Of a stretch of DNA of 42,427 nucleotides, positions 1 through 41,828 are shown piece after piece (within the stretch, counting starts at the first letter, position 1; each line of letters begins with the position of its first letter). This stretch comes from a virus (lineage: Duplodnaviria; Heunggongvirae; Uroviricota; Caudoviricetes). The translations under genes were made by a program, and so were the position numbers. Location of the stretch: IMG/VR virus record IMGVR_UViG_2563366875_000004, positions 1 to 42,427 of that record; one strand, given 5' to 3'. A model generated the notes under the pieces. That model was not told the origin of the DNA and did not search any database. It saw only the letters and a list, made by a program, of their open reading frames with translations.

Positions 1-1020
1 CTACTTACTGACCACAAGCGGCAAATCCAGTGTTGGCGTGATTTTGGTTTTACGATCGTAAATCAACACCTGATTTTCTGTTTTGTGTCCACTGAAAATT
101 TGTTTGTCGCGACTGCTGCCTTCGTAATCTGAAATCCCTTTGGCTTTTATGTCATGGAAGTTGCACCCAAACGGAACGCCGGCTTTTTGCTCGGCTGCAC
201 GTTTAGCCTGATTCCACCAGTTGTTCAGCGTCTTGGCTATTACCTTCCCGCCTTTGGTTGTGTTGATCACATACTCGCATGTGCCGGAAGATACATTTCG
301 GGCTAACTGGATCGCCGTACGTAATCGCGGAGACCATTCCTTGATTTGTTTAGTGCCGGTCTTGTTTTGCTCAATGTAAATCCCTTTATCCATAATATCC
401 TGCCATTTCAGCTCGAGTACATCACCGAGCCTTGCCGCACAAAGATAGGATATCTCCATTGCAATACGTAACTGTGGAATTGCTTCCGCATATATTGCTG
501 CATACTGTTCATCGGTGATGTAAACAGTACGGGCTTTAAGTGTGAATTTTCTGACTCCTTTGCATGGATTATTTTTCACATACCCACGCTCATATCCCCA
601 TCCGTATACACGGCTCAGACTTGCCAGTTCATGGTTTGCCTGGGTCTTGCTCTCAAGTCCTCGCTTATCCATGAAAATTCTTACCTGTTCAATTTTTACA
701 TTATCAGCAAGCACTTTTCCGAATACTGCCAACAATGCCCTTTGATGTTGCCGATAATCTTTTTGGGTTCGGGGGGCCAGTTCTGTAAATGCAGGGGAGT
801 CCATAAACATGTGCCATAATTTAGCTACTGTCATTATGTTGTGGAGTTTTGCTTTTTCCAGCTCATAATTTTGCCAGACTTTAGCTACGCTGGTTTCCCG
901 CACTCTTCCGAGCCCTATAGTTCTTGTGCTTCCTTCGGGTTTCCATACGTAACTGTAACCATTCGATCTAACACGCGGTGGTAGTGCATTATCTTTTTTG
1001 TTTTTTCTTGGTCTTCCCAT
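1..1020 (-). CDS. int: Phage integrase, tyrosine recombinase family (339 aa)
   Basis: Full ORF ending at window edge; lambdoid integrase-like sequence with C-terminal His/Tyr-containing region; overlapped at its 5' end by an excisionase-like ORF as in typical xis-int pairs. Confidence 0.85.
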   Translation of the reverse strand: MGRPRKNKKDNALPPRVRSNGYSYVWKPEGSTRTIGLGRVRETSVAKVWQNYELEKAKLHNIMTVAKLWHMFMDSPAFTELAPRTQKDYRQHQRALLAVFGKVLADNVKIEQVRIFMDKRGLESKTQANHELASLSRVYGWGYERGYVKNNPCKGVRKFTLKARTVYITDEQYAAIYAEAIPQLRIAMEISYLCAARLGDVLELKWQDIMDKGIYIEQNKTGTKQIKEWSPRLRTAIQLARNVSSGTCEYVINTTKGGKVIAKTLNNWWNQAKRAAEQKAGVPFGCNFHDIKAKGISDYEGSSRDKQIFSGHKTENQVLIYDRKTKITPTLDLPLVVSK

Positions 1021-1240
1021 TGTTCAGCGCCTCAAAATCGGGTTCAGCGGAAACCAGTTCAGGTGCTTTTGGCATCGTAGTCAGTCCGTGTGGAATATCC
1101 CTGCGAAGAACTATTGGTTCGTTTTTAGGACCGATTACAAATGGGATACCGTGCAGCCTTAACTGGTGTTGCTGTTTTGTGTATCGCTCGTATTTCGTGA
1201 TCTCTTGAATCTCTGCTGGCGATAGAGTTAATTCGTACAT
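989..1240 (-). CDS. xis: Excisionase-like small DNA-binding protein (83 aa)
   Basis: Small basic ORF immediately upstream of and overlapping int start by 32 nt; position and size typical of Xis. Confidence 0.55.
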   Translation of the reverse strand: MYELTLSPAEIQEITKYERYTKQQHQLRLHGIPFVIGPKNEPIVLRRDIPHGLTTMPKAPELVSAEPDFEALNNGKTKKKQKR

Positions 1241-1306: not shown

Positions 1307-3787
1307 TTAAAAATCAACCGGATTCGGGATCAGTTTTTGTATCGTGGCTGTAACGTATTTTGCCTGGTGACGGGCATCATCCAGCGCATTGTGGCGCACG
1401 CCTTCAAATGGAATAACTGTTCTGGCATCAAAGTCGATTGTTTTTCCCAGCTCAACGATTGTGCGTACATCGCGATCGTTGTAGTAGCGCCACGGGCAGG
1501 GGATGTCCAGACGTTCGTATGAGGTGCGCAAAATTGCGTTATCGAAAGTTGCACCATTACCCCATACCTGAACGAATTTTTCATCTGAGTATTCGTTGAT
1601 GAACTCCCGAAACCGCGAAAGGGCATCCTTCAGTTTTACCTGGTCTGTTAAAATGGCAGCTCTGGCTTCACTGGACTGCTTCAGCCACCATTCGATGGTT
1701 CCACCGTCAGGAACAGCCCCTGTATTCATTGCGTCAGTCAGACTGATAACGATATAAAATACTGGCCCGATTTCCCCTGTTTGTGGGTCGAAGAAAACCG
1801 CACCAATAACCACGATGGGCGCATTGGTGTTGGTTCCCATTGTTTCAAGGTCGATCATCAGGTGGTACCACACTCTGCTGGTGGATGTGATAACGTGATG
1901 ACCGTTCACCGCAATTAAGGGATCTGCCGTCCCGCCAGTTTCATTATCGCTGGCGTGGTCCTGAGCGCTGCCAGCATTCTCCTTGTGTGGATGTTCAGCG
2001 CCTTCCATTTCCTCCGGATCATTTTCCTGAACTTCAACCTGATTCTCTTCATCGAATGTTTCCTGGTATGTTGCGTCGCCCATCACCGCGCCACAATCAG
2101 GGCAGTTGCCGCCACCGCTCTGACCGCAGGCGGTGCAGACTTTTTCCGATTCCTGTTGCGCTACTGGCTCAGGTTGTTTCGTTTCTGGCTCGTTTTGTAA
2201 CGCATTTTGGCTGTTTTGTTCCGCTTTCTGGTCGTTCTGTTCCGTTTCTTGCTGGTTCTGGTACACAGAATCGCGGGTTTCAATCCCCTTCACCCATTTC
2301 GGATCATTCGGGTCGCTAATCCCTGCAACAAATTCTCCGCGAGAGGCAGCAAGCAACTTATCGGCGTCAGGCTGGCTGATATTGGCTGCCTGCATAATTT
2401 TGTTTACTTCGTCAGCGGTAACTTTTACCGGCTCTGGTTGTGCGGTCGTGTCAGAGGCACCAGTATTTTGTTGTGAACCTGAGTACGTGCCGTTTTTACG
2501 GGCAAAATATTCTTCTTTCGTGATTTCAGTAGCCCCTGCAGCCAGCGCCTTATTCAGACCAGAAAGTTTGTTTGCACGACCATATTTTTCGCCATCCTTA
2601 TCGGTGAAGAGGAAGTAGAACGGCCCCTCACGCTCTACAGATGGTTCAGTTTCCAGCGCGCTTTCATTTTTTTTGGTATCAGATACTTCAGTTTCCACTG
2701 CATCAGTTTGTGCTGCTGACGGCTGGAGAATATCAGCAGTGTTCTGGTCTGTTTCTTCATCCTCAAACACGCCCTTTGTCGCCAGGTATTCAGTGATGTA
2801 TTTGTTCAGCGCCACGGGATCTTTGTGAATGTCGATCGGACGCTCACGGACAAGGCCAAAAATAGTCTGACGGTCGTAGCGAACGGCATCAGGTTGTTTG
2901 CGCATTGATGCGGAAATACGCTTCCAGTCTTCGCGATCTTTGTCGATAACTTCATTTTTTGCCCAGCGATGGATGCTGCCGTCAATGTTTCCGGCATTAA
3001 TATCGCCAGGCCACAGAGCGTAGGCCAGTTCTTCATCCAGCGTTTTCCATGTCTGCTTGTATTCGCGACGAATGGCGGCAGTGGCGGGGTTGATTTTTCC
3101 TGCTGAGTTTTCAGTGTGCTGCCGGTTGACTCTGGCGCGGGCAAGATCAACAACAGACGTGTATTTCCCGGTTTCTTTGCGTTCGGCTTCGCGACGTTTT
3201 TTCCAGGTGCGTAATTCTGTCTGGATCTCAGGCCATTTTGCGCCCGGCTTACATTTATGTTTAACCCACCCGATGGCGAACAGCTTTAGTTCTGAATACA
3301 TGACGTTAACTTCAGGCATTTTCATCAGTGCCTCAACGATATGCCCGTCGAATGTTGCCATGTCCTCCTGCAACAATTCCTGTGCACTAATCACCATATC
3401 AACGGTGATGTTTTCACATGTACCGAACTTAACCAGGACCGCGTTCTGTACTTCAAGGGACAGCTTGTCAAAATTGACGTTCATCGGATCGGATTCTGGT
3501 TCGACCGGAACAAAGGAAGCGGATTCCTCATCCCAGCGGTTTTCCAGCATATATTCGGTATCCCAGGAGTCGATGGCAGGGCGGGGCATGCCGGGTTTAT
3601 CCTCGCAAACAAGAAATTTATAAGCGCAGTCCTGAGCAGCCGGATATTGCTCCAGGAATTGCCAGGTAAATTTGGCTCGGGCGCGGCGTTCGTCGCCGGC
3701 TTCAATGGCAGTAGCTACAGCGACTGCACCTTCTTCCTTTATTGCCTGTTCGTCCGGAATGGCGGCGCAAATAAAGACTTTACTCAT
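1307..3787 (-). CDS. Large exonuclease-family protein (826 aa): unassigned N-terminal region, acidic/Gln-rich linker, CxxC-x7-CxxC zinc ribbon, C-terminal DnaQ-like DEDDh 3'-5' exonuclease domain
   Basis: Exo motifs visible in translation: MIDLETMG (Exo I), WGNGATFDNAIL (Exo II), HNALDDARHQA (Exo III); zinc ribbon CTACGQSGGGNCPDCG; located next to xis where lambdoid phages carry recombination genes. Confidence 0.75.
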   Translation of the reverse strand: MSKVFICAAIPDEQAIKEEGAVAVATAIEAGDERRARAKFTWQFLEQYPAAQDCAYKFLVCEDKPGMPRPAIDSWDTEYMLENRWDEESASFVPVEPESDPMNVNFDKLSLEVQNAVLVKFGTCENITVDMVISAQELLQEDMATFDGHIVEALMKMPEVNVMYSELKLFAIGWVKHKCKPGAKWPEIQTELRTWKKRREAERKETGKYTSVVDLARARVNRQHTENSAGKINPATAAIRREYKQTWKTLDEELAYALWPGDINAGNIDGSIHRWAKNEVIDKDREDWKRISASMRKQPDAVRYDRQTIFGLVRERPIDIHKDPVALNKYITEYLATKGVFEDEETDQNTADILQPSAAQTDAVETEVSDTKKNESALETEPSVEREGPFYFLFTDKDGEKYGRANKLSGLNKALAAGATEITKEEYFARKNGTYSGSQQNTGASDTTAQPEPVKVTADEVNKIMQAANISQPDADKLLAASRGEFVAGISDPNDPKWVKGIETRDSVYQNQQETEQNDQKAEQNSQNALQNEPETKQPEPVAQQESEKVCTACGQSGGGNCPDCGAVMGDATYQETFDEENQVEVQENDPEEMEGAEHPHKENAGSAQDHASDNETGGTADPLIAVNGHHVITSTSRVWYHLMIDLETMGTNTNAPIVVIGAVFFDPQTGEIGPVFYIVISLTDAMNTGAVPDGGTIEWWLKQSSEARAAILTDQVKLKDALSRFREFINEYSDEKFVQVWGNGATFDNAILRTSYERLDIPCPWRYYNDRDVRTIVELGKTIDFDARTVIPFEGVRHNALDDARHQAKYVTATIQKLIPNPVDF

Positions 3788-3867: not shown

Positions 3868-4071
3868 TTACGGTGCTGTTTTAAGTCCCGCCGGGATTTC
3901 GTTATTGTCCATGTGAATAACTTTATCAACCGGATAACAGTTGCCGGGAATTTTCTGTTCCGCTGCGGCAGCCATGCATTCTTCCATTGAATCACGTATG
4001 TCAATAATAAGGTCAAGCGGCTCGCCCGTATTAAGAAAAACCGTCAGAACGAGTGCAAATGATGTATTCAT
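3868..4071 (-). CDS. Hypothetical small protein (67 aa), leftward early operon
   Basis: Internal ATG at 4069-4071 preceded by AAAGGA; ATGA overlap with stop of upstream ORF (translational coupling). Confidence 0.45.
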   Translation of the reverse strand: MNTSFALVLTVFLNTGEPLDLIIDIRDSMEECMAAAAEQKIPGNCYPVDKVIHMDNNEIPAGLKTAP

Positions 4072-4256
4072 TGCCAGTATCCTTTTTGCATCAGACGTAA
4101 ACGGGCCAGCATTGAAACAATGCATATTTGATTTAATAGCTCCCGTTCGTGTTTTCTCTTATTAATGGCATCTTCAGTAAATACAGGGTTACTGATTTTG
4201 ACACCAATTTCAAAGCAACCTTCAGACGTATTAACGTTTGGTAATAACGTTTCCAT
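4068..4256 (-). CDS. Hypothetical small protein (62 aa), leftward early operon
   Basis: ATG at 4254-4256 preceded by GAGGA at 8 nt; coupled to downstream ORF. Confidence 0.45.
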   Translation of the reverse strand: METLLPNVNTSEGCFEIGVKISNPVFTEDAINKRKHERELLNQICIVSMLARLRLMQKGYWQ

Positions 4257-4277: not shown

Positions 4278-4431
4278 TTTTGTGATGCGGTGCCTGGTGC
4301 CTCCAGGTGACGTTAACCAGTTAACAATTAACGCCGGATACAGAGAACCCACCCATAAGAACCAATACGGAAGTCAACTGGCCTTTTTAACTGTTCCGCG
4401 TGCGCTGAGCCGCATTCACCGCATCACAAAA
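4278..4431. repeat. Perfect 15-bp inverted repeat pair TTTTGTGATGCGGTG / CACCGCATCACAAAA separated by 124 bp
   Basis: Read directly from sequence (4278-4292 and 4417-4431); internal GTTAAC-containing sub-palindromes; lies in an ORF-free stretch. Confidence 0.6.
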
Positions 4432-4827
4432 TTCACTTTAAAAAGGGCGGACATCAGCCAGCAATGAAAACTGATGCCGCCAAAAGGTAATCAACATGGG
4501 TTGTTGCAGCGGGGTTGTCACTCAAGCGTATGGTCAACCAGACAACCCGGTGCTCCACAGGGGAGGGAGAATAGTACCCCTGCCATACTTACCGCCGCGC
4601 CATTTCGCGGATTGCCACAACCGGAAGCGTACGGTCGAATTAAATTTAACGACAAGCCTCATAGGTGAAGGCCTTCGCCGTACGCTTTCGTGTTATGCCC
4701 TGACTTTTCAGGGATATATCCTTTCAGTAAACTGTCAGTGCCGGATGCTCACCCGTGTCCGGCGCACGACCACACGTGGCAGCGTGTTGGTCTCCATTTT
4801 TAACCCAGAACCCAAATGGAGGATAAA

Positions 4828-5007
4828 ATGTCAGAACAATTTAACCCCCTGCGGAGACCTGCCTCAGCAGCACAACAAGTCGTGCTTGAAGTTGTTCGCG
4901 CGGGTAAGTTGTACGAAAAAACACAACTTTCTGAACTTTTTACACACATGCTTGACCATTACCGTGCTGAGGCGAAACGCCTGGAGCAGGAAAATAAAGC
5001 TCAATAA
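4828..5007 (+). CDS. Small hydrophilic protein (59 aa) encoded convergently to the leftward operon
   Basis: ATG at 4828 preceded by GGAGGA at optimal spacing; protein-like helical composition; strong intrinsic terminator 20 nt downstream. Confidence 0.45.
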   Translation: MSEQFNPLRRPASAAQQVVLEVVRAGKLYEKTQLSELFTHMLDHYRAEAKRLEQENKAQ

Positions 5008-5137
5008 AAGCTGCTTTAATGATCTGAGCCAGTGTGATTGCTGGCTCTTTTTGTGTTGAATCCAGGTCTGCTAATTTTTGACGAAGACAGTCTGCAGCTA
5101 TAACCTGCAAATCTGCAGGTAAATCTTTAAATTCCAT
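4940..5137 (-). CDS. Hypothetical small protein (65 aa); 3' end overlaps the plus-strand small gene and terminator antisense
   Basis: ATG at 5135-5137 preceded by GAGG; either this ORF or the convergent plus-strand ORF may be the real one in the overlap. Confidence 0.3.
   Translation of the reverse strand: MEFKDLPADLQVIAADCLRQKLADLDSTQKEPAITLAQIIKAAFIELYFPAPGVSPQHGNGQACV
5026..5052 (+). terminator. Rho-independent terminator (plus strand only)
   Basis: GAGCCAG-8 nt loop-CTGGCTC stem followed by TTTTTG; on the minus strand the hairpin is followed by no U-tract. Confidence 0.6.
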
Positions 5138-5159
5138 TATTAGCCTCGTTGGTTAGCTA

Positions 5160-5378
5160 TTAACGCGGGTATGTAATCATTCTGGCAATGCTTAATGCCG
5201 CTGCTTTTTCCAGCCTGGTTATATCTTTTTCCAGAGCGGACAGATTTTCAGCCTGCTTAGTCCTGGCTTCATTGGCCCATTTCAGATCCTGCGCTGCATT
5301 AATTTTCTGGCGCATCCACTCATAAAGTTCATCATCGGTATAGTCTGGCGCGATGATGACGGGTTCTCGTTTCTGCAT
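5160..5378 (-). CDS. Hypothetical small protein (72 aa), leftward early operon
   Basis: ATG at 5376-5378 preceded by GAGGAA. Confidence 0.5.
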   Translation of the reverse strand: MQKREPVIIAPDYTDDELYEWMRQKINAAQDLKWANEARTKQAENLSALEKDITRLEKAAALSIARMITYPR

Positions 5379-5407
5379 ACTGATTCCTCGCGGTGCTGTT
5401 TCGCTTA

Positions 5408-5536
5408 TCAGCCGTTAGATTTTGCCGAACTGGAAAGCGCCTGTTTAAACTCACTGAAGCTGAGAGCTTCTTCGCCTTCGGCAAGGCCTTCGAAGTATTC
5501 TTCGTAAGCCTTTTCCATGATTGCGTCGAAATCCAT
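5408..5536 (-). CDS. Small acidic protein (42 aa, MDFDAIMEKAYEEYFEGLAEGEEALSFSEFKQALSSSAKSNG)
   Basis: Not in the 60-aa ORF track; found by hand translation; ATG 8 nt after stop of the upstream ORF; strongly acidic composition. Confidence 0.3.
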   Translation of the reverse strand: MDFDAIMEKAYEEYFEGLAEGEEALSFSEFKQALSSSAKSNG

Positions 5537-5537
5537 A

Positions 5538-5693
5538 TCACTCACCTGAATTTCTTTCCAGCCAGCGATGCGCGCCAGATTCGGTTTTAAACGTTTTGCT
5601 TTTGGTATACGTCATCGCGGTGAATGTGCCGTCCTGGTTGGGAAACACGCCGTACACCAGAGATTCGTTGTTGCCAAGATCGATAGTATCCAT
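5538..5693 (-). CDS. Hypothetical small protein (51 aa), first ORF downstream of pL-like promoter
   Basis: Internal ATG at 5691-5693 preceded by GAGGT; the longer 82-aa form in the track has no RBS. Confidence 0.35.
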   Translation of the reverse strand: MDTIDLGNNESLVYGVFPNQDGTFTAMTYTKSKTFKTESGAHRWLERNSGE

Positions 5694-5770
5694 GCTGACC
5701 TCATTTCCCCTTAACGCCGGGGTAGCGGAACTGTTTGCTGAGAACACCGTGCGGTGTCTTGATGGATGGT

Positions 5771-5822
5771 AATTTAGTTTTCTCATGAAAATTGGTCAAG
5801 TGTTTTTGATGAGAAAACTCAA
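5771..5822 (-). promoter_or_regulatory. pL-like promoter (-35 TTGACC, 17-nt spacer, -10 TAAATT on minus strand) flanked by two operator copies
   Basis: Operators ATGAGAAAACTCAA at 5809-5822 and inverted TCATGAGAAAACTAA at 5774-5788; same 13-mer recurs between repressor and cro. Confidence 0.5.
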
Positions 5823-5885
5823 TATTTAATGCAAAATAAAGCCAATACATTGAAATGTAAGGCTTTAAAATTAGTGAAGGGGGGG

Positions 5886-6344
5886 TTATTGATGTTTGTT
5901 ACGTTTGCGAGCTTCTAGTAGCTCGGTGAATAGGCGATTAAAATTCTCAACGCGGGCACGGAGTTCGCTGATTTGTGCTTGCTGCTCTGATTTTGGAAGT
6001 GCGCGATACAATCGCAACATCTCCAACTCATCTTCCGATAAGTCTAAGGCGCTGTTGAGTGCAACTGGTGGATCTGGTGTTTTATCCTCGTCACCAAACA
6101 GTATCCAAGTTGGTGAACATTGCAATACCTCAGCCAGGCGATGCAAATTTTGCCCGCGCGGGGCTGTATGGTCGCTTTCCCATAGTGAAATTGATGAGCC
6201 AGATACGCCAGCAGCTTTGCTTAAATCGTTTTGACTTAAACCAACCTGTTTGCGTCTTTCTCTAATTCGTTGACCTAAAGTTTTCTCGTTCATATTTAGA
6301 TATCTTAATAACCCTTGACTTGAGATTCCTTGAGTGATTACCAT
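5886..6344 (-). CDS. Prophage repressor, HTH XRE/CI-type, without a LexA-like peptidase domain (152 aa; alternative start at 6293)
   Basis: HTH motif QVGLSQNDLSKAAGVSGSSISLWE; divergent from cro-like gene; C-terminal part is helical and lacks a Ser/Lys autocleavage module. Confidence 0.8.
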   Translation of the reverse strand: MVITQGISSQGLLRYLNMNEKTLGQRIRERRKQVGLSQNDLSKAAGVSGSSISLWESDHTAPRGQNLHRLAEVLQCSPTWILFGDEDKTPDPPVALNSALDLSEDELEMLRLYRALPKSEQQAQISELRARVENFNRLFTELLEARKRNKHQ

Positions 6345-6356
6345 TGAGAAAACTCA
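6315..6356 (+). promoter_or_regulatory. pR-like promoter (-35 TTGACT) with operator TGAGAAAACTCA directly downstream
   Basis: Operator 6345-6356 abuts the repressor start codon and lies upstream of the cro RBS GGAGGGG. Confidence 0.5.
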
Positions 6357-6370
6357 ACTTTGGAGGGGTG

Positions 6371-6598
6371 ATGTTTAAATCAGACGTAATTAATTTTTAT
6401 GGGACGAAAGCCAAAGTAGCGAAAGCTGCTGGTGTTGATCCATCTGCTGTTTCTCAATGGGGAGAACTGGTTCCTGAAGGTCGCGCGATGCGCCTGCAAG
6501 AGGCATCTGGCGGGGAGCTTCAGTACGACCCCAAAGTTTATGACGAATATCGTAAGGCAAAGCGGGCGGGGCGGTTGAACAATGAAAATCACCCCTGA
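6371..6598 (+). CDS. cro: Cro-like / YdaS-like HTH regulator (75 aa)
   Basis: ATG at 6371 after GGAGGGG; small HTH protein divergent from repressor; the track ORF begins at an upstream TTG. Confidence 0.75.
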   Translation: MFKSDVINFYGTKAKVAKAAGVDPSAVSQWGELVPEGRAMRLQEASGGELQYDPKVYDEYRKAKRAGRLNNENHP

Positions 6599-7133
6599 AC
6601 AGGTTTGTGAGGCTCTGGATGCCTGGGTATGCCGACCAGGAATGACACAGGAGCAGGCGACGATATTAATCACGGAAGCATTCTGGGCTCTGAAAGAACG
6701 CCCGAACATTGATGTTCAACGCGTCACGTTTGATGATGGCGCGGTTGATCAACGGGCACTGGGCGTTAACCGGGTGAAGATATTCGAACGCTGGAAAGCT
6801 ATCGACACCAGGGATAAGCGTGAAAAATTCACGGCGCTGATTCCGGCAATTATGGAGGCTATCCGGATCAGTGATTTCAGGTTGTATCGTGAAATTACTG
6901 ACGGAAAAAGCATTACGTACATGATCGCCGGGTTAAACAAAGAATATGGCGATGTGGTGGAGTCCGGGCTGCTTTTTGCGGATCCAGCTGTTGTGGAACG
7001 TGAGACTGACGAGCTTATAGAAAAAGCTATTGCTTTCAAGCATGCGTATCGTCAGCAATACCAACATTACTTTGCAGATAAACAAATATCTGTCTGGGGT
7101 TCGTATGAGTATCGATGCACTACGATGGGCTAA
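6582..7133 (+). CDS. YdaT-like protein (CII functional analogue family), 183 aa
   Basis: Follows cro with overlap; segment IFERWKAIDTRDKREKFTALIPAIMEAI resembles the conserved YdaT core as I recall it. Confidence 0.6.
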   Translation: MKITPEQVCEALDAWVCRPGMTQEQATILITEAFWALKERPNIDVQRVTFDDGAVDQRALGVNRVKIFERWKAIDTRDKREKFTALIPAIMEAIRISDFRLYREITDGKSITYMIAGLNKEYGDVVESGLLFADPAVVERETDELIEKAIAFKHAYRQQYQHYFADKQISVWGSYEYRCTTMG

Positions 7134-8145
7134 AAAGGTGAAAACCGGCAGTTCATCCAGTAAGTCAGTATTGACCTGGCTTGCTGATATGTGCGGTGCC
7201 GATTTGTGTGCATACCCGTCTGTATCTGCACTGGCAGAAGTAACGGAACTGAACAAAAAGACTGTGCAGGACAGCTTACGACACCTGATGGAGATTGGGT
7301 TAATTGTTGATACCGGTGAGAGAAAAGGCCGAACAAAGCAAATCGTGGTGTACCGACTTATCGGTGTTGAAGAAAGTGTTGCCGAGCCTGAATACACCCA
7401 AAAACGGGAGTCTTTAAAGGTGGGTAAAATTGGTGCTGTTAATAAAAACAGTACCGAAAACGGTTATGTTTCAGCACTAAACAGACCCAAAAACGGAACT
7501 CTTTTCTGCATGGAAAATAACCAAAGACACCCAATTTTTCCATCAAAGACACCCAAAAACGGATCACGGAACCCAAAGGAACCCAAAGATCTAAACCCCA
7601 CACATAACACACGCGAGAGTGCTCCGACCAGTGAGCAGGAAGTTTTGTCGTTACAGGCAGCACCCCCTGTATTCCTGGATGGCCTGAGCGAACCCATCGG
7701 AAAATTTCCGATGACCGATAGCTGGTATCCGTCACGGGATTTTCGACGACGGGCTGCGTTGTGGGGGATGGCTTTGCCGGAGACAGAATTTACACCTGCT
7801 GAACTTGCCGCCTTCCGGGACTACTGGACAGCGGAGGGGAAAGTGTTTACGCAGATTCAGTGGGAGCAGAAATTCGCCCGTCACGTAAATCACGTCAGGG
7901 CGCAGGTTAAACCAGTCAGCAAGGGGGTAAACCATGCAGCAGCACCAGGTGGCACCGCATCACGGGCAGTTCAAGAAATTCGGGCAGCACGTGAGCAGTG
8001 GGAACGTGAAAACGGATTTATCAGCGACGGAAACGGCCTGGAAGCTGTGGGAGCTCATGGGGGAGGTTTATTCGAACCGCTGGACCCAGAAGAATGGGGC
8101 CGCACCTTCGAAGCTCTGGATTGCACAGATTGGCGCGATGACTGA
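7105..8145 (+). CDS. Replication initiator, lambda O-like: N-terminal HTH replication domain plus C-terminal DnaT-like domain
   Basis: N-terminus SIDALRWAKK...LTWLADMCGADLCAYPSVSALAEVTELNKKTV fits the HTH replication-protein pattern; low-complexity linker carries iterons; start chosen at internal ATG 7105. Confidence 0.7.
   Translation: MSIDALRWAKKVKTGSSSSKSVLTWLADMCGADLCAYPSVSALAEVTELNKKTVQDSLRHLMEIGLIVDTGERKGRTKQIVVYRLIGVEESVAEPEYTQKRESLKVGKIGAVNKNSTENGYVSALNRPKNGTLFCMENNQRHPIFPSKTPKNGSRNPKEPKDLNPTHNTRESAPTSEQEVLSLQAAPPVFLDGLSEPIGKFPMTDSWYPSRDFRRRAALWGMALPETEFTPAELAAFRDYWTAEGKVFTQIQWEQKFARHVNHVRAQVKPVSKGVNHAAAPGGTASRAVQEIRAAREQWERENGFISDGNGLEAVGAHGGGLFEPLDPEEWGRTFEALDCTDWRDD
7394..7590. 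repeat. Iteron-like direct repeats (putative replication origin) inside the initiator gene
   Basis: ACCCAAAAACGG at 7396-7407, 7485-7496 and 7551-7562; degenerate copy at 7452-7463; tandem ACCCAAAG at 7571-7588; CAAAGACACCCAA twice. Confidence 0.5.
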
Positions 8146-12049: not shown

Positions 12050-12199
12050 TTTTATACCTTTTGTGTTGTGTGAAGGAGCAGTATAGTCAGAAATGAGACA
12101 AGTGAAAGGGGATAGAAAGTAATAGTTTGTTTTTGTAGAATTGCTGCGGGTGCTTGAGGCTATCTGCCTCAGGCATGAACACCAAAAGGCAGATAGAGA

Positions 12200-12303
12200 A
12201 AAGCCCCAGTTAACATTACGCGTCCTGCAAGACGCTTAACATTAATCTGAGGCCATATCTATGCGACACATAGAGATTAGCCTCTTACGGACCGAAAGGT
12301 CAA
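12200..12303 (-). ncRNA. Sok-like antisense RNA with its promoter (approximate bounds)
   Basis: Minus-strand -35 TTGACC (12298-12303) and -10 TAATCT (12274-12279), 18-nt spacer, reading antisense across the mok start; 3' end not defined. Confidence 0.4.
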
Positions 12304-12320
12304 GGAGAAGCAGGCTATGA
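12261..12320 (+). CDS. mok-like upstream leader ORF (19 codons) coupled to hok
   Basis: ATG 12261; stop TGA overlaps the hok ATG (CTATGA). Confidence 0.3.
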   Translation: MRHIEISLLRTERSRRSRL

Positions 12321-15143: not shown

Positions 15144-15206
15144 TCCGACGCAACCGCAAAATCGGTTGTCGGGATTAGCACCCCGGATGTTTACGGAGCG
15201 ATATGA

Positions 15207-15226
15207 GACGCGCCCGCGTCTTTTTT
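15207..15226 (+). terminator. tR'-like intrinsic terminator
   Basis: GACGC-tetraloop-GCGTC followed by TTTTTT. Confidence 0.5.
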
Positions 15227-15390
15227 CATATCGTTTGCACAGTCACATTCGCGATTAATGGCGGGCTGTGTGGGGGAGCCGAAAGGCTCGCCGGTTTCCG
15301 TACCCGGTAGTGCTAACCCCGCACAGTTCGCCACCACGATGATTAGCACCTGACGGTGGCGATAATGTCCAAATGTACGGAGTTATCGTT

Positions 15391-15954
15391 ATGACCACTC
15401 AGATTTCTGTCGAAACTCTTTCCCCAATTACACACAACCAAATTCCCGTTATCACTACCGAGTTACTGGCACAGCTTTACGGTACAGATTCAGATAACAT
15501 CAAAAAGAATTATTCGCGTAACGCAGATCGTTTTTATGAAGGTAAGCACTTCTACAAAGTGATTGGTGATGAACTAAAGAATTTGCGGGTGACTTTAAGT
15601 CACTCACAAAATCCCATCTCTCCCAAAACCCGCTCGCTCATACTCTGGACAGAACGCGGAGCAGCCCGCCACGCAAAAATGCTGGAAACCGATCAGGCAT
15701 GGGAGGTATTCGAAAAACTGGAAGATTGTTATTTCAGCCGAAAACAACCAGCTGCAGCACAAAACACATCTATCGAAAATGATGGATGCGCATTACTGAT
15801 CCACTTCGATAAACACGGTCAGGTCGACTTCACGGAAAAAGTACCCGCCGATGCGATGGTATGCACTCTGGAACGGTTCAAATTTTATCTGGAACAACGC
15901 GGCTGGATCGTTGCCCGTAAAGAACAACTGGTGGAATGGTTGATGCGGTTTTAG
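15391..15954 (+). CDS. ORF6N/Rha-like DNA-binding domain protein (candidate antirepressor or regulator), 187 aa
   Basis: N-terminal pattern ITTELLAQLYGTDSDNIKKNYSRNADRFYEGKHFYKV plus LILWTERGAARHAKMLETDQAWEVFEKLE resembles ORF6N-type domains as recalled; GGAG RBS. Confidence 0.55.
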   Translation: MTTQISVETLSPITHNQIPVITTELLAQLYGTDSDNIKKNYSRNADRFYEGKHFYKVIGDELKNLRVTLSHSQNPISPKTRSLILWTERGAARHAKMLETDQAWEVFEKLEDCYFSRKQPAAAQNTSIENDGCALLIHFDKHGQVDFTEKVPADAMVCTLERFKFYLEQRGWIVARKEQLVEWLMRF

Positions 15955-16956: not shown

Positions 16957-17032
<76 letters not shown>

Positions 17033-17035
17033 TAT

Positions 17036-17110
<75 letters not shown>

Positions 17111-38661: not shown

Positions 38662-38684
38662 TTTAATTTATTGCGAGAAAAACT

Positions 38685-41600
38685 ATGTCTGTAGTGATAT
38701 CAGGTGCGCTGATTGATGGCGCAGGCATCCCCATGTCCGGATGCCACATAATTCTGAAATCCCGGGTAAACACCTCAGAGGTGGTGATGCGCACAGTTGC
38801 CGACGTGGTGACAGGAAACTGTGGCGAGTACTGTTTTAAGGCGCAGACCGGAAAATATTGCGTATATCTGAAACAGGACTGGCGCGACGAGTACTGTGTT
38901 GGCGATATTGCTGTATACGATGACTCAAAGCCTGGCACGTTGAACGATTTTCTGACCGCTCTCGATGAAGGCGACCTCAAGCCGGATGTTGTTAAACGTT
39001 TTGAGGAACTGGTGGCGCAGGCGCAGCAGAGCGCGGAAGCGGCAGCGGAAAGCGAACGACAGGCCGGGCAACATGTCGCTGATGCGCAACAAATTAAGAG
39101 CGACTGCGAGACGCTGGCGGATAACGTACAGCAGAATGCAGAAGCCGTTGCCGAAGATAAAAAGCAGGTGGCGCTCCTTGCATCATCTACCACACAGGAT
39201 GCGGCCCGCGCAGAACAGGCGGTCAAAGATGCCGATAAGATAGTCCAGAAAGCGGTCGATAAACTCGGTGAAGCCGCAACGCTGACCGGCGAGGCAAAAG
39301 CCAGCGCCGAAGCGGCAGCAAAAAGCGAACAGAACGCGAAACAGCACAGGGACGAGGCGCAACGGATAGTCGATGACCTGAAAGGAACCAACGCCAGCAC
39401 GACGCAAAAAGGTCTGGTGCAACTCTGTAGTGATACAGACAACGACAGCGAAGAACTGGCAGCCACACCAAAAGCCGTCAAAGCCGTCATGGACGAGACG
39501 AAAACAAAAGCGCCGCTGGACAGCCCGGCATTCACCGGCACGCCCACCACACCAACCCCACCGGACGATGCTGCCGGTCTGGAAACCGCGAACGCGGCAT
39601 TTGTCCGCAAACTGCTCGCTGCACTGGTTGACTCGTCACCGGAAGCCCTGGACACGCTGAACGAGCTGGCAGCGGCGCTGGGCAATGACCCGGAGTTTGC
39701 GACGACAATCATGAACGCGCTGGCAGGTAAACAACCGCTGAACGACGTGCTGACGGCAATCAGTGAACTGACGCAACGGGCAGATAATCTTCTGTGCTTT
39801 AATCAGGACGGGAATGCTTCACTGTCTCCGCTGTCAGAAAAAGCCCGGTCACTGCTGGCACAGGCCACAGTGGAAGCCATGCGTAATGAGCTTGAGCTGA
39901 AAAGCGCAGCGGTAAGGGACATACAGACAGACCTTTACGACAGCACGGAAGGTCGCGTTGCGCTGCCTGGTGCATTTGGTTACGGAATGACGGACGCCGG
40001 AGCACGTTCAGTTATTGCCAGCAATATAGCGGATATAGCCAGAACCGCTCACAACCTGCACCCGGGACGGTATTACACCTTTTCCACACAAACGGAAGAG
40101 ACGACCGGAATAACAGAAATTATCTGGCTGGATAATGGCTGGGGCGACAAAACAAGCCAGACAGCAACAAAGCTGGTTCTGTTTTTTGGAAAAGACGGAC
40201 GGATTCTCATGACCGTTCGTGGCGATAATATCTCCGCCCCGGTCACCTGGACGAATCTGACGCCACAACTGGGCAATGCAGCACAAAAAGATGCGCAGGA
40301 GAATATTTACGACCGCACCGAAGGCCGCCTGGCGATTCCTGGCATGTTCGGATTCGGGAAAATATTTTCACCTGATGATGTGGTCCGGTTTAATTCAGAA
40401 GCTGATTTATTGAGGTGGGCAAAACAGGTCACACCGGGTGAATATTTTGTAAATGGTTCCGCCGGCATTCTTCCTGGCGTCGTTTTCCGGGGAATGATTC
40501 GCATCCGCTTCCTGGAAGCTGACCGGGCTACACCGAACCCTCCATATACGGCAAAAGCCATTATTTTCTACGGTGTTAACGGTGATATTTATTATAACCG
40601 TTATTGGTCCACAGGTGATGGATTGTTAACTGGCTGGATAAACCTGAAGGTCAACGAGGCTTCACTCAGGGCACTGATTGAAACCCGCGCCCCACTGAAC
40701 AGCCCGGCACTGACCGGAACGCCGTCTACGCCAACACCGCCGGATGATGCAGCAGGTAATGAAATAGCCAATGCGGCGTTTGTCCGCAAATTGCTTGCCG
40801 CGCTGGTTGACTCATCACCGGAAACCCTGGACACGCTGAACGAGCTGGCAGCGGCGCTGGGTCATGACCCGAACTTTGCGACGACAATCACGAACGCACT
40901 GGCAGGTAAACAGCCGCTTAATGACGTGTTAACGGCGGTCAGCCAGATAACACCGGAAGAAAACACACTGCCTTATTTCAGTGAAGAGGGCCGGATTTTA
41001 CTGGCGCAGCTGTCAGAAAAAGCCCGCGCATTACTGGCACTGGACACACCTGAAGCCATGCGCACGGAGCTTGAGCTGAAAGCGGCTGCGACGATGGAAC
41101 CCCAGACCGATATCCGTGACCGCACACCTGGCAGGCTGGCAGTGTCAGGCATGTATGGATTCGGTCAGGCATTTACCAGCACTGAAGCCCTGGCATTTAA
41201 CGGACAGGCTGATTTTGCTGAATGGCTGAAAGAGGCCACCCCGGGGCGTTATGCGGTCAGTATTGCGGACTCTTCCACGCTGCTGGCTGGCACAACGAAA
41301 TTTAACGGCATCATTGATGTGATGTGGTCCCCCTTTGATAACGACGAATCAGATGCAATACGCAAATTCAAAACGTTGCTGTGTTTTAACCAGTATTACG
41401 AAGGCGAACACAATATTCATCGCCTGACTTACCGCTGGAGTGGAAATAACTGGAATGCAACAGTAAGCCCCGTCATTTACGACGGCGATTCGCTGGCCTT
41501 CCTGCTGTCCCGGACGGCGGGCAACGGCCCGTCCTCATATTACAAATATCCGGCAATTGGCTCTCTTATTCTCGCAGTCTATCAGGGAACGGCGGCTGGC

Positions 41601-41828
41601 GATAAGGCAATCAAAATTGGGCTGGGTGACATTGTACCGGGGTCGCGACTCGGTCCGGTAACTATCACCTGCTCAATTAATGATGCAGGTTCATATGTTT
41701 CCACCCCACGCGTTTCTGCCGGAGGTGCCGGGGCATTCAGCTTTCCCGGTCGCTATCAGGCGCTTTCTGGATTCAGTAATTCGTATGGCGATGAAGGCCG
41801 CATTTGTCTGTTTGTGCGCATCGAGTAA
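38685..41828 (+). CDS. Long tail fibre protein (1047 aa) with internally duplicated modules
   Basis: Conserved fibre N-terminus MSVVISGALIDGAGIP, Ala-rich coiled coil, two copies of a SPxxTGTP-TPTPPDDAAG fibre-repeat module, three DxxEGRxAxxGxxGxG-plus-beta units. Confidence 0.8.
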   Translation: MSVVISGALIDGAGIPMSGCHIILKSRVNTSEVVMRTVADVVTGNCGEYCFKAQTGKYCVYLKQDWRDEYCVGDIAVYDDSKPGTLNDFLTALDEGDLKPDVVKRFEELVAQAQQSAEAAAESERQAGQHVADAQQIKSDCETLADNVQQNAEAVAEDKKQVALLASSTTQDAARAEQAVKDADKIVQKAVDKLGEAATLTGEAKASAEAAAKSEQNAKQHRDEAQRIVDDLKGTNASTTQKGLVQLCSDTDNDSEELAATPKAVKAVMDETKTKAPLDSPAFTGTPTTPTPPDDAAGLETANAAFVRKLLAALVDSSPEALDTLNELAAALGNDPEFATTIMNALAGKQPLNDVLTAISELTQRADNLLCFNQDGNASLSPLSEKARSLLAQATVEAMRNELELKSAAVRDIQTDLYDSTEGRVALPGAFGYGMTDAGARSVIASNIADIARTAHNLHPGRYYTFSTQTEETTGITEIIWLDNGWGDKTSQTATKLVLFFGKDGRILMTVRGDNISAPVTWTNLTPQLGNAAQKDAQENIYDRTEGRLAIPGMFGFGKIFSPDDVVRFNSEADLLRWAKQVTPGEYFVNGSAGILPGVVFRGMIRIRFLEADRATPNPPYTAKAIIFYGVNGDIYYNRYWSTGDGLLTGWINLKVNEASLRALIETRAPLNSPALTGTPSTPTPPDDAAGNEIANAAFVRKLLAALVDSSPETLDTLNELAAALGHDPNFATTITNALAGKQPLNDVLTAVSQITPEENTLPYFSEEGRILLAQLSEKARALLALDTPEAMRTELELKAAATMEPQTDIRDRTPGRLAVSGMYGFGQAFTSTEALAFNGQADFAEWLKEATPGRYAVSIADSSTLLAGTTKFNGIIDVMWSPFDNDESDAIRKFKTLLCFNQYYEGEHNIHRLTYRWSGNNWNATVSPVIYDGDSLAFLLSRTAGNGPSSYYKYPAIGSLILAVYQGTAAGDKAIKIGLGDIVPGSRLGPVTITCSINDAGSYVSTPRVSAGGAGAFSFPGRYQALSGFSNSYGDEGRICLFVRIE
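39510..39775 (+). repeat. Copy 1 of an approximately 260-bp intragenic direct repeat (approximate bounds)
   Basis: Near-identical DNA stretches, e.g. GACACGCTGAACGAGCTGGCAGCGGCGCTGGG in both copies. Confidence 0.6.
40690..40955 (+). repeat. Copy 2 of the intragenic direct repeat (approximate bounds)
   Basis: As for copy 1; about 1.18 kb downstream in the same frame. Confidence 0.6.

Follow-up and report, generated by a model that had tools for sequence, protein, structure and literature searches.

RecE (exonuclease VIII), encoded by the Rac prophage of Escherichia coli K-12 next to recT, ends in a PD-(D/E)XK nuclease domain with 5'-3' polarity, and RecET is a workhorse of recombineering. That RecA and single-strand annealing proteins (SSAPs) require 3' tails is established RecET and Red biochemistry. 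The N-terminal domain of RecE is of unknown function and enhances linear-linear recombination (PMC11611040). The opposite polarity is represented by DexA of phage T4, a 3'-5' DNA exonuclease which serves to scavenge host DNA and takes part in intron homing (PMC12153337). In this paper we analyse a gene which combines parts of RecE and of DexA-type enzymes. It lies at 1307..3787 on the minus strand of a 42,427-nucleotide stretch of Caudoviricetes DNA (IMG/VR record IMGVR_UViG_2563366875_000004, positions 1 to 42,427; the whole stretch is called the window in the following) and codes for an 826-residue exonuclease of the YdfE family, in which a RecE-type non-catalytic platform is fused to a DEDDh domain of the DexA/Rv2179c type that replaces the PD-(D/E)XK nuclease of RecE.

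The open reading frame (ORF) starts with ATG, has a GAGG Shine-Dalgarno-like sequence 10 nt upstream and represents the complete coding sequence, along which no anomaly in base composition can be seen. PHROG 2082 ("exonuclease") covers the protein end to end (aa 1-826 against profile positions 1-823 of 823, 1716 bits). The platform consists of a YdfE_N and a YdfE_C domain, a small invariant domain, an RGEF..GIS..W motif and a Cys4 zinc ribbon, together with long disordered acidic linkers. The parts of the protein are listed below, with values of the predicted local distance difference test (pLDDT) taken from an AlphaFold2 (AF2) model of aa 1-640 (50-sequence alignment, mean pLDDT 67) and dN/dS ratios calculated by the Nei-Gojobori method against the orthologue of phage Tritos (dS about 0.5 overall).

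aa 1-205, 3173..3787, minus strand: N-terminal alpha/beta and helical domain of the YdfE_N type; pLDDT above 90; dN/dS 0.10
aa 245-340, 2768..3055, minus strand: helical domain of the YdfE_C type, common to RecE; pLDDT about 90; dN/dS 0.17
aa 385-432, 2492..2635, minus strand: small beta-beta-alpha-beta-alpha domain; pLDDT 80-89; dN/dS 0.03
aa 471-625, 1913..2377, minus strand: segment near-identical to RecE 445-591 by BLASTP, with motif, zinc ribbon and acidic linker
aa 551-565, 2093..2137, minus strand: Cys4 zinc ribbon C551-x2-C554...C562-x2-C565, read from the sequence, with spacing identical to that of RecE
aa 642-814, 1346..1864, minus strand: DEDDh 3'-5' exonuclease domain of the DexA/Rv2179c type; Pfam PF16473, E=5.7e-68

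The catalytic assignment depends on the last of these parts. The PF16473 (Rv2179c-like) profile is covered from position 2 to 175 of 177 and reaches 228.5 bits against a cut-off of 27, with RNase_T as a weak further Pfam match. The sole solved relative that sequence searches brought up is PDB 8KEL/8KEN ("Exodeoxyribonuclease", 227 aa, E=8e-9), which corresponds to T4 DexA (gene taken from the T4 record); the two domains are about 30% identical. In an alignment with DexA and four stand-alone enterobacterial homologues the catalytic set is complete, with D646/E648 in Exo I (MIDLETMG), D749 in Exo II and H799/D804 in Exo III at the positions of DexA D7/E9, D119 and H186/D191. By these alignments the C-terminal domain is a DEDDh (DnaQ-like) member of PF16473, and 3'-5' activity is predicted for it. 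A PD-(D/E)XK nuclease domain of the RecE type was found in the exonuclease neither by Pfam, BLASTP and tblastn nor by six-frame searches of the window.

In those Salmonella and Klebsiella prophages that were examined, stand-alone DEDDh homologues (60-70% identical) are found at the corresponding place near int. One of them, a 189-aa protein on a Salmonella contig (4703-6570) with 62% identity to the window domain, directly follows a dATP/dGTP pyrophosphohydrolase gene (PF04447) and precedes xis-int in a prophage early operon of the YfdP/DUF2303 type. Many database entries for the exonuclease family itself are partial or start at the internal Met644, as do the 183-aa entries. An internal start at this position, which would give a stand-alone domain, was set aside, as no Shine-Dalgarno-like sequence precedes Met644.

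The names given to these proteins raise the question of the substrate. RefSeq calls them "exonuclease", "3'-5' exonuclease" or, often, "3'-5' exoribonuclease domain-containing protein", the best Pfam match is named "Rv2179c-like 3'-5' exoribonuclease", and a DicF-like small RNA is encoded in the same operon, so that one could imagine an exoribonuclease which trims RNAs of the phage or the host, such as early-operon mRNA or the precursor of DicF, from their 3' ends. We consider such a role quite improbable, since the only solved relative found by sequence is a DNA exonuclease, the platform is common to DNA enzymes (RecE and the Rad52-like proteins described below) and the sequence is without any sign of RNA binding.

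Upstream of the DEDDh domain the resemblance is to RecE. Residues 279-625 align with K-12 RecE 294-591 (BLASTP, E=7e-64), and from about aa 470 on, in a region which comprises the motif AASRGEFV.GISDPNDPKWVKGI, the zinc ribbon and the acidic linker, the two proteins are nearly identical; nt 1425-1874 of the gene show 78% nucleotide identity to K-12 recE. The similarity ends at RecE residue 591, where the RecE nuclease domain starts, and for RecE 600-866, the PD-(D/E)XK nuclease, no similarity in the exonuclease could be detected by BLASTP, tblastn or Pfam. When the family profile is compared with RecE 258-480, hhalign gives a probability of 97.5%, with a common core reaching from the YdfE_C domain to the RGEF..GIS..W motif. 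The NCBIfam equivalog for exonuclease VIII (NF007259) scores 280 bits against a cut-off of 1269, and only model positions 243-603 of 877 are matched. As judged from these alignments, the likeness to RecE is true homology and goes beyond size and position.

A first-pass annotation, made from the DNA letters and a list of ORFs, had described a large protein of RecE-like size in the RecE position next to xis, with a zinc ribbon, an acidic linker and a C-terminal DnaQ/DEDDh domain instead of PD-(D/E)XK. This description is borne out by the size (826 versus 866 aa) and the xis gene directly downstream, by the five conserved catalytic residues, by the four cysteines and acidic stretches of RecE-like appearance, and by the hidden Markov model search that it had proposed, which recovers the DEDDh fold over aa 642-814. 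The N-terminal region, which it had called unassigned, has to be redefined as a YdfE_N/YdfE_C module, of which aa 1-256 are 87% identical to K-12 YdfE, the product of a Qin prophage pseudogene interrupted by IS2, in addition to the RecE homology of aa 279-625.

The DNA identity with K-12 amounts to 86% across dicF-dicB-ydfD-ydfE as far as the IS2 insertion, and both sequence and gene order identify the exonuclease gene as an intact ydfE, which in K-12 is a pseudogene. Homologues sharing 81-99% identity with the window protein carry entries for two recent Pfam families, PF27430 (YdfE_N) and PF27432 (YdfE_C); the assignment was taken from these close homologues, and the Pfam release scanned is without the two models. 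The gene is 98.7% identical on the DNA level to a RefSeq "exonuclease" gene of E. coli UMNF18. Similar DNA is present in 4,800 of 5,426 complete E. coli genomes, 3,462 of which cover at least 80% of the gene. The sequence family is already catalogued and very common in E. coli prophages, and in the searchable literature we found no functional study of the exonuclease, of ydfE or of any full-length relative.

The pseudogene in K-12, which is cut by IS2, and the many entries that are partial or start at Met644 would fit a decaying, non-functional remnant of a cryptic prophage. This explanation is already disfavoured and seems very unlikely to us: the reading frame is uninterrupted and lacks none of the catalytic residues, the gene recurs in the complete genome records of the phages Tritos and HannyBb, the number of genomes with at least 80% coverage is as high as given above, and dN/dS against Tritos stays at 0.03-0.17 in the folded modules. 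Besides the values listed, the ratio is 0.14 for aa 471-545, 0.16 for the DEDDh domain and 0.6-1.5 for the disordered linkers. The folded modules are all under purifying selection and the linkers are near neutral; the protein is maintained as a whole and is not decaying.

The acidic low-complexity linkers (aa 344-384, 498-546 and 574-640) are predicted to be disordered in the AF2 model, and the rest of aa 1-640 outside the folded modules is likewise disordered with low pLDDT. Over the zinc ribbon there is a weak Pfam match to DZR (aa 545-569, E=0.06) and a pLDDT of about 69 (about aa 548-570). The mini-domain of 48 residues at aa 385-432 has the lowest dN/dS of the whole exonuclease and the invariant columns GPFYF...GRANK...EI..EEY.ARKNG across 50 sequences. 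The RGEFxxGISDPNDPKW motif, located within aa 471-625, is also kept in the Rad52-like fusion proteins. Across the family, and whatever the C-terminal domain, the mini-domain and the RGEF..GIS...D..W motif (about 2290-2360 on the minus strand, aa about 477-500) are the most conserved parts. This motif is predicted to be unstructured and could be a partner-binding peptide.

With the platform (aa 1-640) as query, 1.84 billion representative proteins were searched exhaustively by HMMER; only 246 clusters were returned at E<=0.001, so the platform is narrowly distributed. The C-terminal domains ("heads") attached to it differ, and a local BLAST of the long platform-bearing representatives against domain queries gives four types.

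DEDDh head: about 7 long representatives
RecE-type or DUF3799 PD-(D/E)XK head: about 12 long representatives
third type of head, no Pfam match: 18 long representatives
fourth type of head, phrog_26058 (unknown function, no Pfam match): 6 long representatives (P0246, P0350, P0355, P0357, P0372, P0377)

Proteins with the third type of head (about 780 aa) are annotated as "exodeoxyribonuclease VIII" in Klebsiella, Salmonella, Enterobacter, Citrobacter and related genera; they possess the YdfE_N/YdfE_C platform and no recognisable nuclease domain. For one of them, P0249, an AF2 model was obtained with a mean pLDDT of 72.6, and mostly 80-90 in the C-terminal domain. The top five Foldseek matches of this model in the PDB are all the N-terminal domain of human RAD52 (E 5e-6 to 2e-5, probability 1.0), with about 180 aligned columns and about 20% identity, while the next-best match has E=0.12. 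A sequence-profile search of the PDB with the third-type C-terminal domain gave nothing, and the Rad52 likeness comes from the fold comparison only. In Klebsiella aerogenes a gene of the P0249 family (P0395, 6001-8337 of its contig) has a weak Gam-like ORF on one side and on the other a Sipho_Gp157 gene, followed by xis-int, and the locus has no separate exonuclease gene. The model suggests that the third type may be a possibly unreported SSAP fusion with a predicted Rad52-like annealase, and that the annotation of these proteins as exodeoxyribonuclease VIII is probably wrong.

How heads might be exchanged can be seen from a natural hybrid, P0248 (E. coli contig, 5001-7418). Its gene is 92% identical to K-12 recE over nt 1-1772 (aa 1-591), with 100% identity of the N-terminal 290 residues to K-12 RecE, and past recE nt 1772 it continues with a DEDDh domain 70% identical to that of the window. 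The contig is Rac-like upstream (sieB, kilR, ydaE) and leads downstream straight to xis (DUF4224) and int without recT, which was lost together with the RecE nuclease domain. Because the hybrid switches from RecE to DEDDh there, the conserved linker segment looks like a crossover point for the exchange of catalytic heads and downstream genes. We offer a broader reading, though only tentatively and as one that we hold to be possible rather than probable: the non-catalytic region of YdfE and RecE might be a mobile platform for targeting DNA ends (or a host factor), which in enterobacterial prophages carries swappable heads, namely nucleases of either polarity (5'-3', or 3'-5' of the DexA type), an annealase resembling Rad52 and one or more further domains of unknown kind, and the DEDDh version might form an SSAP-independent class of lambdoid DNA-end-processing modules. 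What may be novel here is the idea that YdfE and RecE have an exchangeable platform in common, as well as the Rad52-like fusion now annotated as exonuclease VIII.

The genes around exo, as we call the exonuclease gene here, are arranged as follows.

1..1020, minus strand: tyrosine integrase (ORF and RefSeq annotation of the near-identical UMNF18 prophage)
989..1240, minus strand: excisionase, immediately downstream of exo (PHROG 1266, E=6.5e-23; DUF4224 in UMNF18)
3868-4071, minus strand: ydfD-like gene (DUF1482), immediately upstream of exo (PHROG 1092/1251 pair with dicB; UMNF18 coordinates)
4068-4256, minus strand: dicB, in the same leftward operon (PHROG 1092/1251 pair with ydfD; order as in Qin dicB-ydfD-ydfE)
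4385-4566, minus strand: DicF-like region between dicB and ydfC (81.5% identical to the K-12 dicF locus; below the Rfam gathering score in a scan of the whole window)
5886..6344, minus strand: repressor of the DicA/CI type, head of the immunity region (PHROG repressor families; order as in Qin, Tritos and HannyBb)

The order int - xis - exo - ydfD - dicB - (DicF-like) - ydfC - ydfB - ydfA - repressor, after which a Cro-like ORF and replication genes run rightward, is that of the K-12 cryptic prophage Qin, with exo as the last gene before xis-int. The exonuclease belongs to the early proteins of a lambdoid prophage of the Qin/DicB type and is an intact member of the YdfE family. Starting next to the repressor, the early operon runs leftward and ends with exo. 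No promoter-like site was found directly upstream of exo, which fits expression from the operon.

To this neighbourhood belongs the question of an annealase. Pfam and PHROG gave no match to RecT, Bet, Erf, Rad52 or Sak in the early-region ORFs of at least 100 aa and in the small ORFs between exo and the repressor. The scanned leftward proteins are the excisionase, the DUF1482/YdfD-like protein, DicB, the YdfC-, YdfB- and YdfA-like proteins and the repressor; the others are a CII/YdaT-like protein, an O-like replication protein with a DnaT domain, a P-like helicase loader, DUF1627, DUF977, DUF551 and DUF968/HNH proteins, RusA, Q and the anti-repressor, the Cro-like ORF being listed and not itself scanned. 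In the whole window, six-frame tblastn, phmmer and hmmsearch found nothing significant for K-12 RecT, lambda Bet, P22 Erf, a Rad52-like profile, lambda Exo, Gam or Abc2; for the Sak4/Rad51-like and Gp2.5-like families the search consisted of the Pfam and PHROG scans only. The gene is also found in the complete genomes of Tritos and HannyBb (at 85% nucleotide identity in Tritos, about 87% over the wider matched region), and no SSAP, Gam or lambda Exo is annotated in either of them. The first-pass annotation had likewise seen no annealing protein in the window, and the searches agree with it: neither an annealase among the flanking small ORFs nor a RecE-type PD-(D/E)XK match came to light.

These results bear on whether the protein could be a true recombination exonuclease that replaces RecE and works with host RecA/RecFOR or an unrecognised annealase in spite of its opposite polarity. 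The RecE/Exo position next to xis and the RecE platform would agree with this, as would the fusion of the platform to a Rad52-like annealase in other prophages and the presence in the window of RusA and a DUF968/HNH protein, which are recombination-associated functions of the nin region. However, 3'-5' degradation destroys the 3' tails needed by RecA and SSAPs, neither the window nor any of three related genomes or contigs has a detectable SSAP, and the hybrid of RecE N-terminus and DEDDh domain has lost recT along with the RecE nuclease domain. For these reasons we consider this explanation unlikely.

We consider it modestly probable that the protein is a 3'-to-5' DNA-end exonuclease which is made on induction and processes DNA ends during lytic development. 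Behind this proposal stand the complete DEDDh centre, the homology to DexA and a platform common to two kinds of recombination enzyme; substrate and role are inferred. Derepression of the prophage would start leftward early transcription through ydfA-ydfB-ydfC-dicF-dicB-ydfD-exo-xis-int. The C-terminal domain of the protein produced would then use two-metal catalysis to strip nucleotides off DNA at free 3'-OH ends, with D646, E648, D749 and D804 as metal ligands and H799 as general base, as in T4 DexA. The platform would steer the nuclease to the target of the RecE N-terminal region, which is presumably a DNA end or a host factor, given that in other prophages this platform bears a RecE nuclease or a Rad52-like annealase. 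Resection in the 3'-to-5' direction would leave no 3' tails for annealases of the RecT/Bet type, so that the exonuclease would not be one half of a RecET/Red-type pair, which is consistent with the absence of an SSAP; we conclude that it is not a RecET-type recombinase. Its role may instead be the trimming or degradation of 3' ends of linear DNA and of recombination and replication intermediates in lytic growth, comparable to that of DexA in T4 double-strand-break repair and DNA scavenging.

Several points weigh against this proposal. A stand-alone E. coli homologue of DexA has been reported to act in anti-phage defence and not in phage DNA metabolism (PMC12153337). The DNA substrate is deduced from an identity to DexA of only 30%, within a Pfam family named after an exoribonuclease, and the platform is without an informative structural relative, so that its putative targeting role is deduced solely from the recombination enzymes in whose company it occurs. 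How the gene is expressed and how the operon is built are likewise read from the gene order and from K-12 Qin, and biochemical or genetic data on the exonuclease or its full-length relatives were not found in the searchable literature. The first-pass annotation had named recombination, anti-defence and DNA processing as possible functions, a list which cannot be narrowed decisively by computation.

A defence function deserves particular attention in this respect, as the main alternative to our proposal. Phage-resistance functions are known from the neighbouring dicB operon, exo sits in a prophage and is found extremely widely in E. coli, and its DEDDh domain is homologous to DexA and has the full catalytic set. 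This domain might, in prophage defence or superinfection exclusion, selectively degrade the incoming 5-hydroxymethylcytosine (5hmC) DNA of T-even phages and thereby protect the lysogen, like EcD ("HREX", HAK9828821.1), an E. coli DexA-family DEDDh exonuclease which, when carried on a plasmid, is reported to cleave T4 DNA and to protect against T4 even when uninduced (PMC12153337). Nevertheless we judge this improbable. The residue signature used in that publication for 5hmC-specific enzymes is not seen in the window domain. DexA W152 and D169 have been proposed for 5hmC recognition (PMC12153337), and in the window domain they correspond to Y769 and T783, in an alignment of 30% identity in which the position of D169 is uncertain. 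The tetramer residue D90 of DexA is lost in EcD, which has Ala there, and is retained as D721 in the exonuclease according to the same alignment; the distance from the Exo I Asp to this position appears to be 75 residues in both EcD (D3-A78) and the window protein (D646-D721). EcD is short and stand-alone and starts with MIDTET, whereas the exonuclease is an 826-aa fusion. Furthermore, exo is the last cistron of a repressed early-left operon without a promoter-like site of its own, PADLOC returned a generic Cas-associated DEDDh match and nothing more specific, and the RecE-type platform with its Rad52-like and RecE-nuclease sister fusions points to DNA recombination or repair. EcD is not among the 120 homologues listed for the window domain, and the publication on EcD refers neither to a prophage context, the word "prophage" having 0 occurrences in it, nor to a fusion of the RecE type (PMC12153337).

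Some further features of the window were seen outside the exo operon. In the nin-like region a sok antitoxin RNA (12148-12319, plus strand; Rfam RF01794, 108 bits) implies a hok/sok-type toxin-antitoxin cassette. At 15150-15954 (plus strand), just after Q, isrK (RF01394) and a C4 antisense RNA (RF01695) directly precede an anti-repressor gene (15373-15954, PHROG 2379), a set which represents a P1/P7-type c4-ant immunity module inside a lambdoid prophage. Genes for tRNA-Thr(TGT) and tRNA-Gly(TCC) (16957-17110, plus strand) lie upstream of the lysis genes, and the same pair is annotated in the UMNF18 prophage. In the tail-fibre region a 349-aa ORF (38663-39712, minus strand) is nested in a 1047-aa ORF (38685-41828, plus strand), and at 39-40 kb GC and AT skew are unusual (GC 0.579, AT skew 0.36).

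The exonuclease gene, which is among the most widespread E. coli prophage genes, is ordinary in its occurrence, yet through it an old question about RecE can be approached directly, namely what the N-terminal two-thirds of this protein do, for which no function beyond the enhancement of linear-linear recombination is known (PMC11611040). Here the RecE platform is naturally joined to a nuclease of opposite polarity and in relatives to a Rad52-like annealase, and these fusions represent a ready-made domain-swap set for asking what the platform binds. If the platform is indeed swappable, the N-terminal two-thirds of RecE become experimentally tractable by means of natural swaps. That K-12 has no intact copy may explain why the gene has never been studied. 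If the DexA-like domain acts on incoming or modified DNA, as reported for EcD, it could affect the phage susceptibility of clinical and veterinary strains. In addition, it appears that many proteins of Klebsiella, Salmonella and Enterobacter have been wrongly annotated as "exodeoxyribonuclease VIII".

Compared with known systems, the window locus shows neither feature of the two-component phage recombinases ("SynExo"), a 5'-3' exonuclease and an adjacent SSAP gene. With lambda Red (Exo-Bet-Gam) it shares the lambdoid early-left neighbourhood, but the predicted polarity of the exonuclease is opposite and there is no annealase or Gam in the window. Rv2179c of Mycobacterium tuberculosis, the namesake of PF16473, belongs to the same Pfam family as the window domain; it is a stand-alone cellular exoribonuclease and does not appear in a direct PDB sequence search with the exonuclease at E<=0.01. 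T4 DexA (PDB 8KEL/8KEN) has the same DEDDh fold family with the D-x-E, D and H-x4-D residues aligned, and both proteins are phage-encoded and non-structural; DexA, however, is a stand-alone protein of 227 aa with extra loops, while the window domain forms the C-terminus of an 826-aa fusion. RecE is of like size (866 versus 826 aa) and has a comparable early-left position near xis-int, but Rac has recT, ralR and rcbA between recE and xisR, whereas the window exonuclease is adjoined directly by xis, with no recT in the window. The first 260 or so residues of the window protein are of the YdfE_N type, with no detectable similarity to RecE 1-257, and the mini-domain at aa 385-432 is an addition that K-12 RecE does not have. 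Finally, the RecE C-terminus is a PD-(D/E)XK nuclease (5'-3'), while that of the window exonuclease is a DEDDh domain with predicted 3'-5' polarity.

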